Shown: piece after piece, positions 18,781-27,694 of the stretch
Numbering within the stretch: position 1 is the stretch's first letter
How the letters are laid out: each line of letters opens with the position of its first letter
Source: an uncultured Candidatus Saccharibacteria bacterium
GTDB taxonomy: Bacteria > Patescibacteriota > Minisyncoccia > Minisyncoccales > Staskawiczbacteraceae
Assembly: GCA_964567205.1 (NCBI GenBank)
Contig: CAZMKW010000003.1
Coordinates: forward strand, 1 to 43,757
Length of the DNA: 43,757 bases
Direction: 5' to 3'
Notes under the pieces: model-generated
What the model was told of the DNA's origin: nothing
What the model saw: only the letters and a program-made list of their open reading frames with translations
Database searches by the model: none
Made by a program: the position numbers and the translations under genes

Positions 18781-21003
18781 ATGAATCAATTTTGGACAAT
18801 CGTTGTCGGGATATTGGTTTTAACAAGCGTCATAGTGTTTGGTTTTACCTTTTTTCAGGTGAGCGAGCAAAGGGCGTCTTTGGTTTCAGATTTAGAATAT
18901 AGAACTCAGATTCTGTCAGAAAGTTTTAAGGAATCTATAGAGCCAGCATACATTAATAATTCTCAAGAATCTTTACAAAAAACTTTAAATAAATTTACCG
19001 ACAAGCAAAGATTGTTGGGAATAGTTGTATACGACAGCAAAGGGGGTGCGGTAGCTTCTTCTATTGATTTATCAGATGAGGTGATAAAAAGCGCTAAGCC
19101 CGCCCATGCCATGGATTCTGATAGTGCCTCGGGGAGTTTTGTATCTGTAGAAAAAAACAAGATTTATGAATTCGTCGATCCTTTACATCAGGATAGTGCA
19201 GTAATTGGATCGATTATGATTGTGCAAAATGCCGGTTATATAGATACTGCAATTAATCAGACTTGGGCAACTGTTCTCTTGCGATTTTTCATCCAGACAT
19301 TAATTTTAATAATCGCCATAATCTTTATCCTAAGATGGCTAGTTTTTAAGCCGATTCTAAAGATGATTAAATCGATAAAAATGATTCGGGCTGGCAAACC
19401 AGATCAAGAACTAGATACTATTGAGAACCATTCTTTTTTTCGTCCGTTGGCCGAAGAAATATCTAAAATTTCTGCCAGTTTATTGAAAGCCAGGTCGGCC
19501 GCCAGCGAAGAGGCAAGGTTAAGAATGGAGAAATTGGATACCCCCTGGACAGCGGACAGATTAAAAGAATTTGTTAAAAGTTACCTCAAAGACAGAAAAA
19601 TTTTTGCGGTTTCTAATCGAGAACCATATGTACACAATAAAACAAAGAATGGAATAGAGTGTTCTATCCCGGCTAGTGGCATGGTTACTGCTATTGAACC
19701 AGTTATGGCATCTTGTGGCGGAGTTTGGTTGGCGCAGGCAACGGGTGACGCAGATAAAAAAACTGCTGATGCTGATGGAAAATTACAGGTTCCTCCCGAC
19801 GATCCAAAATATACTTTGAAGAGAATTTGGCTTTCGGAGAAAGAGCAGAGGGGTTTTTATGTCGGTTTCTCAAACGAAGCTTTGTGGCCGTTATGTCATA
19901 ATGTGCACAACCGCCCCATTTTTAGAAAGGAGGACTGGCAGGAATATCGTAGAGTAAACGGAAAATTCGCTCAAAACCTGTTACGTGAGATAGATGGCAT
20001 AGAAAAACCTTTGATATTAGTACAGGATTTTCACTTTGCGTTGTTGCCCCAGATGATAAAAAAAAGTAGACCAGATGCCAAAATAGGATTATTTTGGCAC
20101 GTTCCATGGCCAAGCCCCGAGGTTTTTAATATTTGCCCATGGCACAAAGAGATACTGGAAGGAATGCTTGGAGCGGATATTATCGGATTTCACACACAAC
20201 AATACTGCAACAATTTTATGGGGACGGTTGGAAAAGGCATGGAGTCAATGGTAGACCTGGAACAGTTTTCAATTACTTTAAAGAGTCACTTGACCTATAT
20301 AAGACCATTTCCCATTAGTGTTGAATTTACCTCGAAAGAGGAAGAAAAATTAGATGTAAAAAGGCGCGAAGATTTACTGGGTCAATTTGGAATAAAAAGC
20401 GAACACGTCGGCTTAGGAGTAGACAGACTAGATTATACTAAAGGTATTTTAGAACGCTTTAAGGGTCTCGAATTTTTCTTTAATTCTTTCCCTGCGTATA
20501 AAGAAAAATTTACATTTTTGCAGATTGCGCCCCCAAGCAGAGAGGGAGTTGAAAAATACAGAGAATTTAATGAGGAGCTAACGGCAGAAGCAGAAAGGAT
20601 TAATGAAGAGTTATCACAAAATGACTGGAAGCCGATTGTCTTAATAAAAAAACATTTTACTCACGAAGATTTATCTTTATTATATCGTCGGGCCAACCTT
20701 TGTCTGGTCACGCCTTTGCATGACGGCATGAATTTAGTATCTAAAGAATTTGTTGCCGCAAGAAATGATGAGTCTGGCGTTCTTATTTTAAGCCAATTTG
20801 CCGGGGCTTCAAGAGAGCTTAAGGGGGCTATTATAATTAATCCCTATTCGGCCGAACAAACTTCTTCGGCAATATATGAGGCTCTTAATATGTCTTTATC
20901 TCAGCAACACCAACGTATGAAAAAAATGCGTGAAGCGGTAAAAAATTATAATGTATACAGGTGGTCTGCGGAATTTATGAGAGCTGTCGCAAGCCTAGAT
21001 TAA
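18781..21003 (+). CDS. otsA: Trehalose-6-phosphate synthase with N-terminal TM-sensor-TM-HAMP-like module
   Basis: VSNREP, LWPLCH, QDFHF, FWHVPWP, VDRLDYTKG, DGMNLVSKEF; about 265 extra N-terminal residues with two TMs. Confidence 0.93.
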   Translation: MNQFWTIVVGILVLTSVIVFGFTFFQVSEQRASLVSDLEYRTQILSESFKESIEPAYINNSQESLQKTLNKFTDKQRLLGIVVYDSKGGAVASSIDLSDEVIKSAKPAHAMDSDSASGSFVSVEKNKIYEFVDPLHQDSAVIGSIMIVQNAGYIDTAINQTWATVLLRFFIQTLILIIAIIFILRWLVFKPILKMIKSIKMIRAGKPDQELDTIENHSFFRPLAEEISKISASLLKARSAASEEARLRMEKLDTPWTADRLKEFVKSYLKDRKIFAVSNREPYVHNKTKNGIECSIPASGMVTAIEPVMASCGGVWLAQATGDADKKTADADGKLQVPPDDPKYTLKRIWLSEKEQRGFYVGFSNEALWPLCHNVHNRPIFRKEDWQEYRRVNGKFAQNLLREIDGIEKPLILVQDFHFALLPQMIKKSRPDAKIGLFWHVPWPSPEVFNICPWHKEILEGMLGADIIGFHTQQYCNNFMGTVGKGMESMVDLEQFSITLKSHLTYIRPFPISVEFTSKEEEKLDVKRREDLLGQFGIKSEHVGLGVDRLDYTKGILERFKGLEFFFNSFPAYKEKFTFLQIAPPSREGVEKYREFNEELTAEAERINEELSQNDWKPIVLIKKHFTHEDLSLLYRRANLCLVTPLHDGMNLVSKEFVAARNDESGVLILSQFAGASRELKGAIIINPYSAEQTSSAIYEALNMSLSQQHQRMKKMREAVKNYNVYRWSAEFMRAVASLD

Positions 21004-21004
21004 T

Positions 21005-21802
21005 ATGAAATATTTTTTTGATTTTTCTCAGGAAATAATAAAAAGAATACAGGGCGCAAAAGATTGCGCCCTGATGTTTGATTTTGACGGAACGCTGTCT
21101 AAAATTGCTAAAACGCCAAGAGAAGCCTTTTTGGAAAAATCGACGAAAGATTTGATAAAAAAACTAAATAAAAATTTTTGTGTCGCTGTGGTTAGCGGCC
21201 GCGACCTTTCTAGTGTTAAGTCTATGATTGGCTTGCCTGGTTTAATTTACGCGGGCAACCATGGTCTCGAATGGCAGATAGGGAAAAAATCCGAAAACTT
21301 ACATATTGATAAAAAATTTCAGGAGGATTTAGCGCAAATAAAAAATATATTTAAGAGTGTGGCTGTAAATTATCCGGGAATTTCTATCGAAGACAAATTA
21401 TCTAATTTATCAATCCATTACCGCTTACTTAGTGAAAAGGCTTGTGGGGATTTTTTAAAAAAAATTAAAGAAAATATTTTGGCAGTTAATAAAGAAGGAT
21501 TTTTTTCTGTGACGAAGGGTAAAAAGGTTATAGAAATACGTCCAAAGGTTGCTTGGGACAAGGGGGCTTTTGCAAAATTTTTGTTACAGAGGATAAAAGT
21601 TAAAAACAGACATTCATGTTTGGCATTTTATATTGGGGACGATAAAACCGACGAGGACGCTTTTGTGGCGCTGTCCGACGGAATAACTATCCGTATCGGT
21701 AAGAATAAAAAAAGCGCGGCAAAATATTATATAAAAAATCAAAAACAGATAGATAAGTTGTTGTTGTGGCTTCTTAAAAACATTAGCAAGGACTCCAATT
21801 AA
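21005..21802 (+). CDS. otsB: Trehalose-6-phosphate phosphatase
   Basis: DFDGTL, SGR, GNHGLE, EIRP..DKG, GDDKTDEDAF. Confidence 0.95.
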   Translation: MKYFFDFSQEIIKRIQGAKDCALMFDFDGTLSKIAKTPREAFLEKSTKDLIKKLNKNFCVAVVSGRDLSSVKSMIGLPGLIYAGNHGLEWQIGKKSENLHIDKKFQEDLAQIKNIFKSVAVNYPGISIEDKLSNLSIHYRLLSEKACGDFLKKIKENILAVNKEGFFSVTKGKKVIEIRPKVAWDKGAFAKFLLQRIKVKNRHSCLAFYIGDDKTDEDAFVALSDGITIRIGKNKKSAAKYYIKNQKQIDKLLLWLLKNISKDSN

Positions 21803-23350: not shown

Positions 23351-23608
23351 TTAAGACAGGTGCTTTGAGACTAATTTTGTCATCTCGAACATGTCTACTA
23401 CTGCCTTTCCGCCAAAAACTACTTTTAACTTGGCATCGGCGATTATATTTCTTTTTGCTTTTGGGTCCTGCAAGTTATTCTTTTTAATATACGCCCAAAG
23501 TTTTTTTACTACTTCAGATCTTGGCATCGGGCCCTTTCCTACTACTGCTTCTAAATCAGCAGTGAGTTTTAACGGCTTCATGAAAGCCGAATTTGCTTTT
23601 CCTGGCAT
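23351..23608 (-). CDS. Stand-alone SWIB/MDM2 domain protein
   Basis: PMPRSEVVKKLWAYIKKNNLQDP..KRNIIADAKLK..DMFEMTKLVSKHL. Confidence 0.93.
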   Translation of the reverse strand: MPGKANSAFMKPLKLTADLEAVVGKGPMPRSEVVKKLWAYIKKNNLQDPKAKRNIIADAKLKVVFGGKAVVDMFEMTKLVSKHLS

Positions 23609-23821: not shown

Positions 23822-24142
23822 ATTGTTAGCGAAAATGGGTTTTGGCATTTGCACTTTGTGCCTCTTCTTGAAGAGGAAGGTGCAATCGCGGAACTTACCT
23901 CCGTCCTTTTTGCACCAGATTGTCATCTTAATGTGTAGGGAATCTTTGCTGTTCCAAAGCCTTCTTACGTCTTCTTCTGGGCAACGCCAAAAGTTGTGTT
24001 TTTTTCCATCGGCGCAAATTACGCCCATGCAGAGGCTATGGGCATCGTCTACTTCTTCGCCCAATTCTCGTGCGATTACCGCATTCGCATGGGAAACATC
24101 ACCGAGTGGTTCTATACCCCAGACATATTCTGATTTGGCCAT
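23804..24142 (-). CDS. Hypothetical protein (orphan cassette)
   Basis: AAGGAGG RBS; TTGACT-16-TATTAT promoter at 24217-24190. Confidence 0.7.
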   Translation of the reverse strand: MAKSEYVWGIEPLGDVSHANAVIARELGEEVDDAHSLCMGVICADGKKHNFWRCPEEDVRRLWNSKDSLHIKMTIWCKKDGGKFRDCTFLFKKRHKVQMPKPIFANNKKAPT

Positions 24143-24298
24143 GATTAGCCTCCTTATTCAGCTGGAAATGTTCAGTCAGTCCAGTACTTATAATATACTT
24201 TTTCGGCTAAAAGTCAACAATTTCCCTCTAAATTTATTCACTTTTAGCTCTTGCGTTGTACTTTATTTTGCGGTAAAATAGAAGAATATAAGCTATAT

Positions 24299-25447
24299 AT
24301 GAAGAGAGAAAATATTATAATAGAAGACAAAAAAGAGCAGGAGCTGGTTGGGGAATTACAGACTCGCACAGATATTAAGGCAGAAAGGATTAAGAGGTTA
24401 TTGGCGCTCCCAGATTTAACAAAAAAGGAAAACTCTCCCGTTAAGCTTTTAGTTGACCAGATAATAGAGTTACCAAGATTCAAAGATTTTTACTTAATTG
24501 ATTTTCCAAGAATTGTTGCTGTAGCTGATAATTTTGATGTTTTAAATACTCCGAAAGATCATCCATCAAGAAGAGAGTCTGATACATATTATATTACAGA
24601 AAAAGACATACTGCGCACGCAAACCACAACAATGTGGCCATATTGTTTGCGCGATGAAAATGTACTGGAGGTCCTTGAAAAAGATGGAGAATTCGGAGCA
24701 TTATCTACTGGTATCGTTTTTAGAAAAGATGAAATTGACAGAAAGCATTTTCCGGCATTTCACCAGATAGATGGCTTATATATTTGTAAAAAAGATAAGA
24801 AAGTAATAACTCAAAGAGATTTAGAACTTGTAGAAGAGGATATTGTAAAAACCCTTTTTGGAAAAGATATTGAGTTTAGGTTTTTGGTGGATTCTTTTCC
24901 GTTTACAGACCCCTCGGTTCAAATTGAAGTGAAATTCAATAATGATTGGTTGGAAATTGTTGGTTCGGGATTAGTGCATTCACAATGCTTAAGAAATTTT
25001 GGTATTGACCCAGAGATTTATAACGGTTGGGCGTTTGGATTTGGAATAGAAAGATTAGCCATGATAAAGATGGGGATCACCGACATAAGAATTTTATGGT
25101 CAGACGACCCGCGAATTACAAGCCAATTTAAAGATATAAACAGCAAATATAAAGAAGTCAGTAGATATCCTGAAATTTCAAGAGATATTTCTTTTGTGAT
25201 TGATAAAAGCATAAATTTAAATAATTATTACGAAATTGTACGCGACTTTGCAGAAAACCTAATCGAAGAAGTAAAACTTTTAGACAGCTACGAAGACGAC
25301 GCGAAATTCGGTAAAGACAAAAAAAGTTATACATTTAGAATTACATATTGCTCGCCGGAAAGGACTCTAACCAATGAAGAGATAAATAAAATCCAAGAAG
25401 AGATTAGAGAAGAAACAGTCAAGGAATTAAACGCCGTATTAAGATAA
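24299..25447 (+). CDS. pheS: Single-chain phenylalanyl-tRNA synthetase: alpha catalytic domain fused to the ferredoxin-fold anticodon-binding domain
   Basis: DHPSRRESDTYY, LRTQT, FRKDEIDRKHFPAFHQIDG, FPFTDPS, GWAFGFGIERLAM, then YPEISRDISF...ERTLTNEEIN. Confidence 0.92.
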   Translation: MKRENIIIEDKKEQELVGELQTRTDIKAERIKRLLALPDLTKKENSPVKLLVDQIIELPRFKDFYLIDFPRIVAVADNFDVLNTPKDHPSRRESDTYYITEKDILRTQTTTMWPYCLRDENVLEVLEKDGEFGALSTGIVFRKDEIDRKHFPAFHQIDGLYICKKDKKVITQRDLELVEEDIVKTLFGKDIEFRFLVDSFPFTDPSVQIEVKFNNDWLEIVGSGLVHSQCLRNFGIDPEIYNGWAFGFGIERLAMIKMGITDIRILWSDDPRITSQFKDINSKYKEVSRYPEISRDISFVIDKSINLNNYYEIVRDFAENLIEEVKLLDSYEDDAKFGKDKKSYTFRITYCSPERTLTNEEINKIQEEIREETVKELNAVLR

Positions 25448-25471
25448 TTAAAATTTTAATTATTAACAACG

Positions 25472-27694
25472 ATGAAGCTAAATATAAAATCGAAAGACGA
25501 AGAGCCCGAGAAACCCGCCAAAATTTCTGCTCCGCATAAAATTCAGGCGGACAAGAAGCCGGAAATAAAAAAGGAAACCCCTAAAAAAGAGAAACCGGTT
25601 TCGGCTGAAAAAAAACCTGCGGCACCGAAGAAGGAGGCGAAAGTAAAGCCAGTTAAATCAGAAAAAAATAAACCGGCTGAAATTGAAAAGAAAGTTGAAA
25701 AAACTGAAGAAAAACCGTCTACGTCGCCGACCGAAGAAGTAAAAAAGTCTGTAGCAGAACAGATAGCAGCCAAAAAAGGCAAAGCAAGAAAAGAGGGAGA
25801 ATATACCGCCAAAGATATCTATGTTCTAAAAGGGTTAGAGCCGGTTAGATTAAGGCCAGGAATGTATATAGGATCTACCGGGGTTGATGGTTTGCATCAC
25901 TTGATTTGGGAGGTTGTTGATAACTGTTTAGATGAAGCGATGGCAGGTTACGCTAAAAATATTGAGGTTGTTTTATTGCCAAATAATAGGGTAAAAATTT
26001 CTGATGACGGTAGGGGAATACCAGTTGAAAAACATCCGGATACGGGAAAATCAACCTTGGAAACGGTTTTAACAACATTGCACGCAGGAGGAAAATTTGG
26101 CGGGGAAGCGTATAAAGTTTCCGGAGGTTTGCATGGAGTTGGTATTTCTGTTGTGTGTGCACTTTCTACTTATATGATGTCTCAAGTTGAAAGAGACGGC
26201 GGAGTTTACCAGCAGGAATATTTTAGAGGGGCTCCAAAGACTGCGGTCAAAAAGATTGGAGAATCAAAAAAAACCGGAACCACACAAACGTTTGACGCAG
26301 ACCCGGAAATATTTTCGGAAATAAAATACGATCCCAAAAGAATTTTAAAACACTTGCGCCAACAGGCTTATTTAACAAAAGGGGTTAAGCTTACATTTAG
26401 AGATGAAAGAACAAAAGGGGAAGAGAGCAGTTATACTTTTTATTTTGAAGGAGGAGTGGGCTCTTATGTAAAATATTTGGTTGAGAGTAATACTCCGCGT
26501 CACCCAAATATTTTTTCTATTAGCACGGAGAAAGATAAGATTTGGGTTGAAGCGGCTTTTCAGTATACGCAAGAAATGGAATGTACAGAAGAATCTTTTG
26601 CAAATAATATTTATACGGTTGAAGGCGGAACGCATGTCTCCGGTTTTAGAACCGCCCTCACAAGGTCTTTGAATGATTATGCAAGGCGCGAAGGAATTCT
26701 TAAAGAGAAAGATGAAAATTTCTCTGGAGATGATGTAAGAGAGGGATTAACCGCCGTAATTTCTGTTAAAATTCGTACTCCGCAGTTTGAGGGTCAGACA
26801 AAAGCAAAGCTGGGAAATCCGGAAGCTAAAAATGCCGTTGAGTCTGCGGTTGCAGAAGGTTTGTCTGATTATTTGGAAAGGAACCCCTCTGATGCAAAAT
26901 CTATTATCGAAAATTGTCTTTTGGCCACCAAAGCAAGATTGGCTGCAAAAGCTGCTCGTCAGACAGTTTTAAGAAAGGGCGCACTGGAGGGCTTAGCTTT
27001 GCCTGGAAAATTAGCAGATTGTCTTTCTAGAAAACCGGAAGAGTCAGAGATATATATCGTTGAGGGAGATTCGGCTGGAGGCTCGTCAAAGCAAGCGAGA
27101 GATAGGAGATTTCAGGCGATATTGCCATTAAGAGGAAAGATTTTAAACGTAGAAAGAGCAAGACTGGATAAAATGTTAGCCTCAAAAGAAATTAAGGCTT
27201 TAATTATCGCCATGGGAACTGGCATTGGAGAAGATTTTGATATTGAAAAACTAAGGTATCATAGAATTGTAATTATGACTGATGCTGACGTTGACGGAGC
27301 TCATATTAGGACTTTACTTTTAACATTTTTTTACAGACACTTTAAACCAGTTGTTGATGCCGGCCATATTTATATCGCTCAGCCACCATTGTATAAAGTT
27401 TCTTTTGGGAAAAATACGCAATATGCGTACTCGGACGGTCAGAGAGATAAAATTGTAAAAGAAATGGGCAAAGGGGGAGTTTCAATACAAAGGTATAAGG
27501 GTTTGGGAGAAATGAATCCTGACCAGCTTTGGGAAACAACAATGAATCCGGAAAATAGAACCTTGTTGCAGGTTGCGGTTGAAGAGGCTCACGAAGCTGA
27601 TAAAACTTTGGATATACTTATGGGTGAACAAGTGGAGCCGAGAAAGAAGTTTATACAGACCCACGCCAAAGCTGCTAAAAACTTGGATATATAA
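25472..27694 (+). CDS. gyrB: DNA gyrase subunit B with Lys/Glu/Pro-rich N-terminal extension
   Basis: RPGMYIG, EVVDN, DDGRGIP, VEGDSAGG, PLRGKILN, MTDADVDG, QRYKGLGEMN. Confidence 0.95.
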   Translation: MKLNIKSKDEEPEKPAKISAPHKIQADKKPEIKKETPKKEKPVSAEKKPAAPKKEAKVKPVKSEKNKPAEIEKKVEKTEEKPSTSPTEEVKKSVAEQIAAKKGKARKEGEYTAKDIYVLKGLEPVRLRPGMYIGSTGVDGLHHLIWEVVDNCLDEAMAGYAKNIEVVLLPNNRVKISDDGRGIPVEKHPDTGKSTLETVLTTLHAGGKFGGEAYKVSGGLHGVGISVVCALSTYMMSQVERDGGVYQQEYFRGAPKTAVKKIGESKKTGTTQTFDADPEIFSEIKYDPKRILKHLRQQAYLTKGVKLTFRDERTKGEESSYTFYFEGGVGSYVKYLVESNTPRHPNIFSISTEKDKIWVEAAFQYTQEMECTEESFANNIYTVEGGTHVSGFRTALTRSLNDYARREGILKEKDENFSGDDVREGLTAVISVKIRTPQFEGQTKAKLGNPEAKNAVESAVAEGLSDYLERNPSDAKSIIENCLLATKARLAAKAARQTVLRKGALEGLALPGKLADCLSRKPEESEIYIVEGDSAGGSSKQARDRRFQAILPLRGKILNVERARLDKMLASKEIKALIIAMGTGIGEDFDIEKLRYHRIVIMTDADVDGAHIRTLLLTFFYRHFKPVVDAGHIYIAQPPLYKVSFGKNTQYAYSDGQRDKIVKEMGKGGVSIQRYKGLGEMNPDQLWETTMNPENRTLLQVAVEEAHEADKTLDILMGEQVEPRKKFIQTHAKAAKNLDI

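Follow-up and report, generated by a model that had tools for sequence, protein, structure and literature searches.

A single-chain phenylalanyl-tRNA synthetase gene in the pheS-pheT place of a tiny-genome lake bacterium of the Patescibacteria

The window, by which we mean the whole stretch of 43,757 nucleotides analysed here, comes from a lake bacterium of the Patescibacteria with a tiny genome (G000; 559,325 bases in 44 contigs, 85.9% complete). At positions 24299-25447 it carries a gene that is most probably the organism's sole phenylalanyl-tRNA synthetase (PheRS), an editing-free, single-chain enzyme that was acquired laterally and has displaced pheS and pheT (pheST) in place. We propose the following mode of action. 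The class II core, which is of the PheS type, would activate Phe and then transfer it to tRNA-Phe, while the FDX-ACB domain at the C-terminus, a homologue of the beta-subunit domain B8, would read the GAA anticodon. By analogy with human mitochondrial PheRS, the resting enzyme may be closed, its anticodon domain packed against the core, and may swing open for tRNA. Because there is no beta subunit, the B3/B4 post-transfer editing site is missing, as it is in the mitochondrial enzyme, and the enzyme would be expected not to proofread. The gene itself belongs to a bacterial branch of the fused family that has probably spread laterally among Patescibacteria, displacing pheS-pheT in place upstream of gyrB.

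The features of the locus, in window coordinates, are:

24299..25447, + strand: single-chain phenylalanyl-tRNA synthetase gene; open ORF of 382 codons plus stop, from the translation
24299..24415, + strand: short N-terminal helical segment (residues 1-39) that replaces the PheS coiled coil; from the model helices and the start of the TIGR00468 alignment
24416..25129, + strand: class II catalytic core of the PheS type (residues 40-277); PF01409 tRNA-synt_2d, E 9e-58, 196 bits
25130..25159, + strand: linker (residues 278-287) joining the core to the anticodon-binding domain; falls between the two Pfam envelopes and is colinear with the human mitochondrial enzyme
25160..25444, + strand: FDX-ACB (PheT B8-like) anticodon-binding domain (residues 288-382); PF03147, E 2.9e-26, 92.2 bits
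25472..27694, + strand: gyrB, conserved on the downstream side and a marker of the pheST slot; matches to Pfam DNA_gyraseB, Toprim and HATPase_c
23351..23608, - strand: SWIB-domain gene, an upstream neighbour conserved within the genus; PF02201, E 8e-30, also upstream in the same-genus loci L005-L009 and L013
23804..24142, - strand: ORF of 112 aa, family unknown, divergent from the PheRS gene; no Pfam match

A first-pass annotation made from the letters alone had described a 382-aa ORF with PheS motifs, lacking the N-terminal coiled coil and followed by gyrB rather than pheT, and these descriptions hold. The frame at 24299-25447 (+) is open and its translation contains every string quoted by that annotation; gyrB begins at 25472, leaving a gap of 25 bases after the PheRS gene. 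The match to TIGR00468 starts only at model position 45, and in the AlphaFold2 model two short helices (residues 11-22 and 26-36) precede the core, with no long PheS coiled coil. At the other end, the FDX-ACB assignment is borne out by the HMM search (92.2 bits against a Pfam cut-off of 31.1 bits), and the domain aligns to positions 692-798 of TIGR00472.

In two further lake-water DNA runs, contigs span the gene and the gyrB junction with 0 differences (X3 record 12, 24038-25495; X2 record 6, 24641-26154), both bridging into gyrB. Since these runs agree, the single-chain-gyrB arrangement does not stem from faulty assembly of a single sample. No RNA run was among the 14 public runs containing the locus. 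Homologues of the divergent 112-aa ORF (33-44% identity) occupy the same position in L010-L013, L035, L036, L038, L045, L050 and L076. GyrB itself has, before its ATPase domain, an N-terminal extension of >100 residues rich in Lys, Pro and Glu (window 25472-25880), and the Pfam HATPase_c match starts at residue 139.

The window protein lies below the curated cut-offs of all three NCBIfam models of PheRS type. Thus, it scores 257.3 bits (cut-off 300) on NF051887, the PheS-related mystery ligase SrmL, which is the top NCBIfam match by E-value; 249.1 bits (cut-off 258.35) on TIGR00469, pheS_mito; and 185.0 bits (cut-off 237.45) on TIGR00468, pheS. True SrmL members score 359-447 bits on NF051887. 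On TIGR00469, the clade representatives P0122, P0124, P0125 and P0129 are also below the cut-off, and P0121 is just above it at 264.3. The solved structure that matches best in sequence is that of human mitochondrial PheRS (188 bits), with which the order of core, linker and C-terminal domain is colinear; the best bacterial PheS, the alpha subunit, reaches 146 bits.

The predicted fold points the same way. The AlphaFold2 model (pLDDT 94.2, pTM 0.90; input alignment of 40 rows) finds its best Foldseek match in 3cmq, the closed human mitochondrial PheRS (TMq 0.78, rmsd 3.2 A, 388 columns), and the top matches 3cmq, 5mg* and 8p8x all give TMq 0.77-0.78 (rmsd 3.2-3.3 A, 388 columns). With bacterial alpha chains, only the core superposes (TMq about 0.55), where the fold alignment with the E. 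coli alpha chain gives 36% identity. The label "mitochondrial-type" given by the first-pass annotation is therefore apt for the architecture, the fold and the best solved relative, but the protein falls short of the TIGR00469 cut-off and stands outside the organellar clade (see below).

We next consider whether this is the only PheRS of its genome. In G000, the TIGR00472 profile for pheT matches only the FDX-ACB tail of the single-chain gene itself, and no second pheS was found, the other PF01409 match being one of only 24.9 bits in a 500-aa frame on C10. Neither a B3_4 editing domain nor a D-Tyr deacylase, which would edit in trans, was found in G000; at 86% completeness both negatives are weak, and for the former the result accords with the earlier proposal of a streamlined enzyme without an editing domain. 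Because absence from one 86%-complete genome proves little, the argument rests on relatives. Within the genus, the single-chain gene (62-92% identity), or a fragment of it at a contig end, is present in 23 of 24 relatives, and pheT is above the cut-off in none of the 24.

The same holds further out. An even draw from the order (151 genomes, 80 families) contained 17 carriers of the single-chain gene, with pheT in none of them. The 134 non-carriers comprise 123 with pheT above the cut-off, seven with a long match below it, one with a contig-end tail and three with nothing; the completeness of these last three genomes, which have neither form, is 90, 59 and 90%. In a draw from the phylum, a full-length homologue (44-62% identity) occurs in 25 of 401 genomes, spread over several classes, and pheT was found in none of five carriers from other families and classes, each 98-100% complete. 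Indeed, several of the pheT-free carriers of the order, the genus and the other classes are 98-100% complete in 4-10 contigs. The single-chain gene and pheST are mutually exclusive in all genomes searched.

One copy deserves separate mention. In the one-contig genome G055 of the order, which yielded no pheT, the match to the single-chain gene (C1:371360-372380; L091) is split over two frames that overlap and runs through many stop codons. The copy is either a frameshifted gene or a product of assembly errors.

The two forms also share a genomic slot. In canonical relatives, pheS-pheT lies directly upstream of gyrB (L014-L017, L074). In carriers, the single-chain gene stands in the place of pheST, often followed, as in the window, by gyrB, (ybaB), secE and nusG; many other carriers in the wider collection have no gyrB within 4 kb. 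The swap is seen most directly in genus g24, where two genomes of different species, G045 and G161, have five upstream genes (43-84% identity) and gyrB (70%) in common. Between these, G161 has pheS-pheT, and G045 has an OMP decarboxylase gene, an ORF of unknown family and the single-chain gene, whose product is 34% identical to the PheS of G161. No mobile-element genes were seen at the swap site of G045, where the two extra ORFs are those just named. The copy in G169 is on an 8-kb contig without the gyrB context.

Some further observations concern PheT and tRNA-binding ORFs around these loci. The canonical PheT of the order (L014-L017 and the sampled order genomes) matches its model at positions 1-40 and again from about position 156 onward; since the match skips from position 40 to about 156, this PheT is without the B2 domain, in agreement with the part of a published account in which many CPR PheRS-beta subunits lack B2 (PMC5370408). 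In two carriers of other classes, a PheT-B2-like stub ORF lies directly upstream of the single-chain gene (G527:C1:284505-284855 and G189:C1:517943-518296). These stubs, of 144-154 aa, match PheT positions 41-152, the B2 tRNA-binding domain, with E about 1e-31. No such stub adjoins the single-chain gene in the window. G000 does encode a separate tRNA_bind (PF01588) protein, about 120-140 aa long (C11:4565-4876; L092:1489-1911, -). It was considered as a remnant of pheT and rejected, as in G000 it has no match to the pheT model at E 0.001. Similar small ORFs occur in pheST-carrying relatives, and the free tRNA_bind ORF is thus not specific to carriers.

These ORFs bear on the alternative that survives best, although we regard it as improbable: that the protein is a PheRS, but not one that works as a lone monomer; it would either dimerise with itself by its class II motif 1 face or depend on a tRNA-binding protein in trans. 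The free tRNA_bind ORF on C11 and the stubs that precede the gene in G527 and G189 would both suit such a partner. Set against this are the free ORF falling short of E 0.001 with the pheT model in G000, the occurrence of similar small ORFs in relatives with canonical pheST, and the reported monomeric state of the organellar homologue. A complex prediction with two copies of the single-chain PheRS scored 0.00 and counts neither for nor against a homodimer. We favor a single-chain enzyme that would probably act as a monomer.

Several lines of evidence indicate that the gene is kept for PheRS function. First, none of 40 fused proteins departs from R142, D144, D147, H150 and R252, residues of motifs 2 and 3. 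Second, F200, P201, F/Y202, G222 and A245 are found throughout 17 clade rows (the window protein and 16 others), as well as in 10 rows of canonical PheS and 51 of organellar type. The stretches F200-P201-F202 and G243-W-A245-F-G247 of the window protein are the same as in the 10 canonical PheS rows, and we take these FPF and GxAFG motifs to be the Phe pocket of PheS. In SrmL the pocket is different: five rows have, in window numbering, H200, Y202, E222, Y95, P154 and R267, as opposed to F200, G222, D95, F154 and W267 in 17 of 17 clade rows, the window included. W267 and Y97 are common to the window protein and the organellar enzymes, against canonical PheS, and residue 158 is Asp in the window protein and Glu in eight of 10 canonical PheS. 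Third, comparison with the 92%-identical orthologue in G012 gives a dN/dS of 0.054 at a dS of 0.90, and the gene is under purifying selection.

The tRNA side appears ordinary. G000 has one tRNA-Phe(GAA), at C15:165-239, with A73 and an encoded CCA. Its D-arm, anticodon loop and A73 are common to 14 single-chain genomes of the same genus and five pheST genomes (G026, G027, G028, G033 and G040), and no change of tRNA-Phe identity tied to the enzyme swap was seen between these two sets.

The origin of the gene was approached by a maximum-likelihood tree of 53 rows and 335 columns under LG+C20+F+G4, from which 30 of the 83 rows of the first alignment were left out as near-duplicates or, in three cases, as truncated organellar-type rows; supports are given as UFBoot/SH-aLRT. 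Canonical PheS falls on one side of a branch (100/100), with all fused forms together in one clade apart from it. Within the fused forms, the organellar and giant-virus proteins make up one clade (100/97) with the Patescibacteria sequences outside. The latter group with P0125, P0129 and SrmL (99/98), and this assemblage is sister to the organellar and giant-virus clade. The affinity with organellar enzymes put forward in the first-pass annotation is supported insofar as the fused forms stand together apart from PheS; the position is next to, not within, the organellar clade.

This topology argues against recent acquisition of the gene from a eukaryote or giant virus, in which case a host-associated bacterium would have captured an organellar-type PheRS. 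We consider this unlikely. Its appeal lies in the closest solved structure being human mitochondrial PheRS, in the short forms of similar length that giant viruses possess (Tupanvirus, 356 aa) and in the TIGR00469 cut-off being missed by only 9 bits. Yet the organellar and viral clade excludes the Patescibacteria sequences, which sit instead with SrmL and two bacterial-type representatives, and the clade is deep in Patescibacteria, with 44-62% identity across classes.

Still less probable is a fusion in place, in which a deletion inside the local pheS-pheT operon would have joined the PheS core to B8, making the likeness to mitochondrial enzymes convergent. The gene is indeed exactly at the pheS-pheT position of its relatives, upstream of gyrB, and some carriers of other classes keep a PheT-B2-like stub ORF beside it. 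Both domains are, however, nearer to organellar-type proteins than to those of the order: for the core, identities are 40-45% to organellar-type proteins against 29-34% to the order's PheS, and for the C-terminal (ACB) domain, 37-45% to organellar and giant-virus domains against 27-38% to B8 of the order's PheT. The grouping of all fused forms in one clade apart from canonical PheS also counts against it. Joining the Patescibacteria clade with the order's own PheS was rejected by the AU test (p-AU 0.00026, log-likelihood difference 131.9), for a group that was chosen after the tree had been seen. Finally, the swap partners of g24 are 34% identical, to be compared with 43-84% for the flanking genes.

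Least probable of all is that the protein is a paralogue akin to SrmL, acting on a different substrate, and that incomplete assemblies lack the real pheST: although NF051887 is its top NCBIfam match by E-value and SrmL its closest bacterial relative in the tree, the NF051887 score stays below the cut-off of 300 bits, the clade pocket (F200, F/Y202, G222, D95, F154, W267) is like that of true PheRS and unlike that of SrmL, pheT was found in none of the 17 order carriers, 24 genus genomes and five other carriers, and the gene occupies the pheST slot.

Judged by sequence comparison, the single-chain gene thus appears to be no remnant of the local pheST, but one that has spread laterally and now occupies the slot of pheST. 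A quick gene tree within the order, in which several supports are under 95, shows copies from eight other GTDB families nested among those of family f1, and two copies from genus g21 in different starred groups. The pattern is consistent with lateral spread, although errors of binning may contribute: the family codes refer to GTDB bins made from metagenomes, and mis-binned contigs could mimic some of the patchiness.

As to SrmL, its representatives (P0177, P0210, P0250, P0261 and P0269) branch from within the bacterial single-chain PheRS clade, beside P0125 and P0129, two representatives of about 450 aa; the grouping of this pair with SrmL has support of 95/88, and SrmL is on a long stem of 1.28 substitutions per site. 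The long stem and the replaced pocket residues suggest that SrmL may be a former PheRS given a new substrate. In the same collection, P0162 (872 aa) combines an AlaRS-like N-terminal part (residues 115-415) with a full PheRS of the pheS_mito type (residues 460-871), and may be either a gene-model fusion or a real one.

A broader reading, which we put forward tentatively and think possible but not probable, is that the fusion of the PheS core with B8 was a bacterial invention, that the resulting bacterial lineage of single-chain PheRS survives in the housekeeping enzymes of Patescibacteria and in SrmL, their neofunctionalised offshoot, and that monomeric PheRS in mitochondria, plastids and giant viruses goes back to a bacterial gene of this kind. 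Organellar monomeric PheRS may then not be an early-eukaryotic assembly of alpha and beta parts. If this were true, the compact gene could still displace pheS-pheT today, and proofreading-free decoding of Phe would be a recurrent, viable state in free bacterial lineages.

It is useful to place the enzyme among the known systems. Organellar monomeric PheRS (human FARS2, yeast MSF1; "PheRS-M"; TIGR00469; 3CMQ closed, 3TUP with tRNA) has the same chain of core, linker and FDX-ACB, colinear with the window protein; the whole-chain fold is that of the closed form, and neither enzyme has a beta subunit or an editing domain. In contrast to the organellar enzymes, the window protein is encoded on a bacterial chromosome and would have a housekeeping role there, is 382 aa long against 405-415 aa in the crystal constructs, belongs to the sister clade with a TIGR00469 score below the cut-off, and would serve a normal bacterial-type tRNA-Phe. 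The "PheRS-M" architecture, as set out in an entry of AARS Online (PMC11580382), is that of the window protein. Giant-virus PheRS (Tupanvirus soda lake, 356 aa) is likewise a single chain of the same two domains and of similar length, but the viral forms pass TIGR00469 and fall inside the organellar-type clade, neither of which is true of the window protein. That giant-virus PheRS groups with organellar PheRS is stated in a section of an earlier report (PMC11304981), and the family tree here agrees.

SrmL (NF051887), known mainly from Actinomycetota and Pseudomonadota, is also a bacterial fusion of core and FDX-ACB and the nearest bacterial kin. It differs in its replaced pocket (H200, E222, Y95, P154, R267), whereas in the window protein the pocket of PheRS is retained and no pheST lies alongside. 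Canonical (alpha-beta)2 PheRS (PheS, TIGR00468; PheT, TIGR00472), the form of most relatives in the order, has a homologous core, a homologous B8 and the same slot upstream of gyrB; unlike it, the window protein is without the N-terminal coiled coil and without beta domains B1 to B7, which include the B3/B4 editing site.

Passages in reviews distinguish three PheRS forms and assign the monomeric, editing-free one to organelles (PMC3275996; AARS Online, PMC11580382). Here, the form so assigned is most probably the only PheRS of a bacterial lineage, being present in 17 of 151 genomes of the order and 25 of 401 of the phylum. A literature search outside subscription journals found no paper describing a housekeeping single-chain PheRS of bacteria; passages of PMC6744442 name the alpha and beta PheRS only as a clustering example. 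The clade provides a bacterial sister group with which the origin of mitochondrial PheRS could be rooted, and it would place the unexplained SrmL ligases as derivatives of real PheRS. In addition, natural in-place swaps between proofreading and presumably non-proofreading PheRS in close relatives offer a comparative system for the worth of Tyr and m-Tyr editing. There is also a consequence for annotation. All seven named clade members are called "hypothetical protein" at NCBI, and automated surveys may therefore score carriers as lacking PheRS; the JGI name is "phenylalanyl-tRNA synthetase alpha chain".

Elsewhere in the window, no Rfam family matches at any position. The GC content is 0.49 over positions 1-2000, compared with 0.35-0.40 in the rest of the window. 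At 18781-21802, a trehalose-6-phosphate synthase gene, whose product of 740 aa has an N-terminal extension of about 270 residues, adjoins one for trehalose phosphatase, in a genome of 0.56 Mb.
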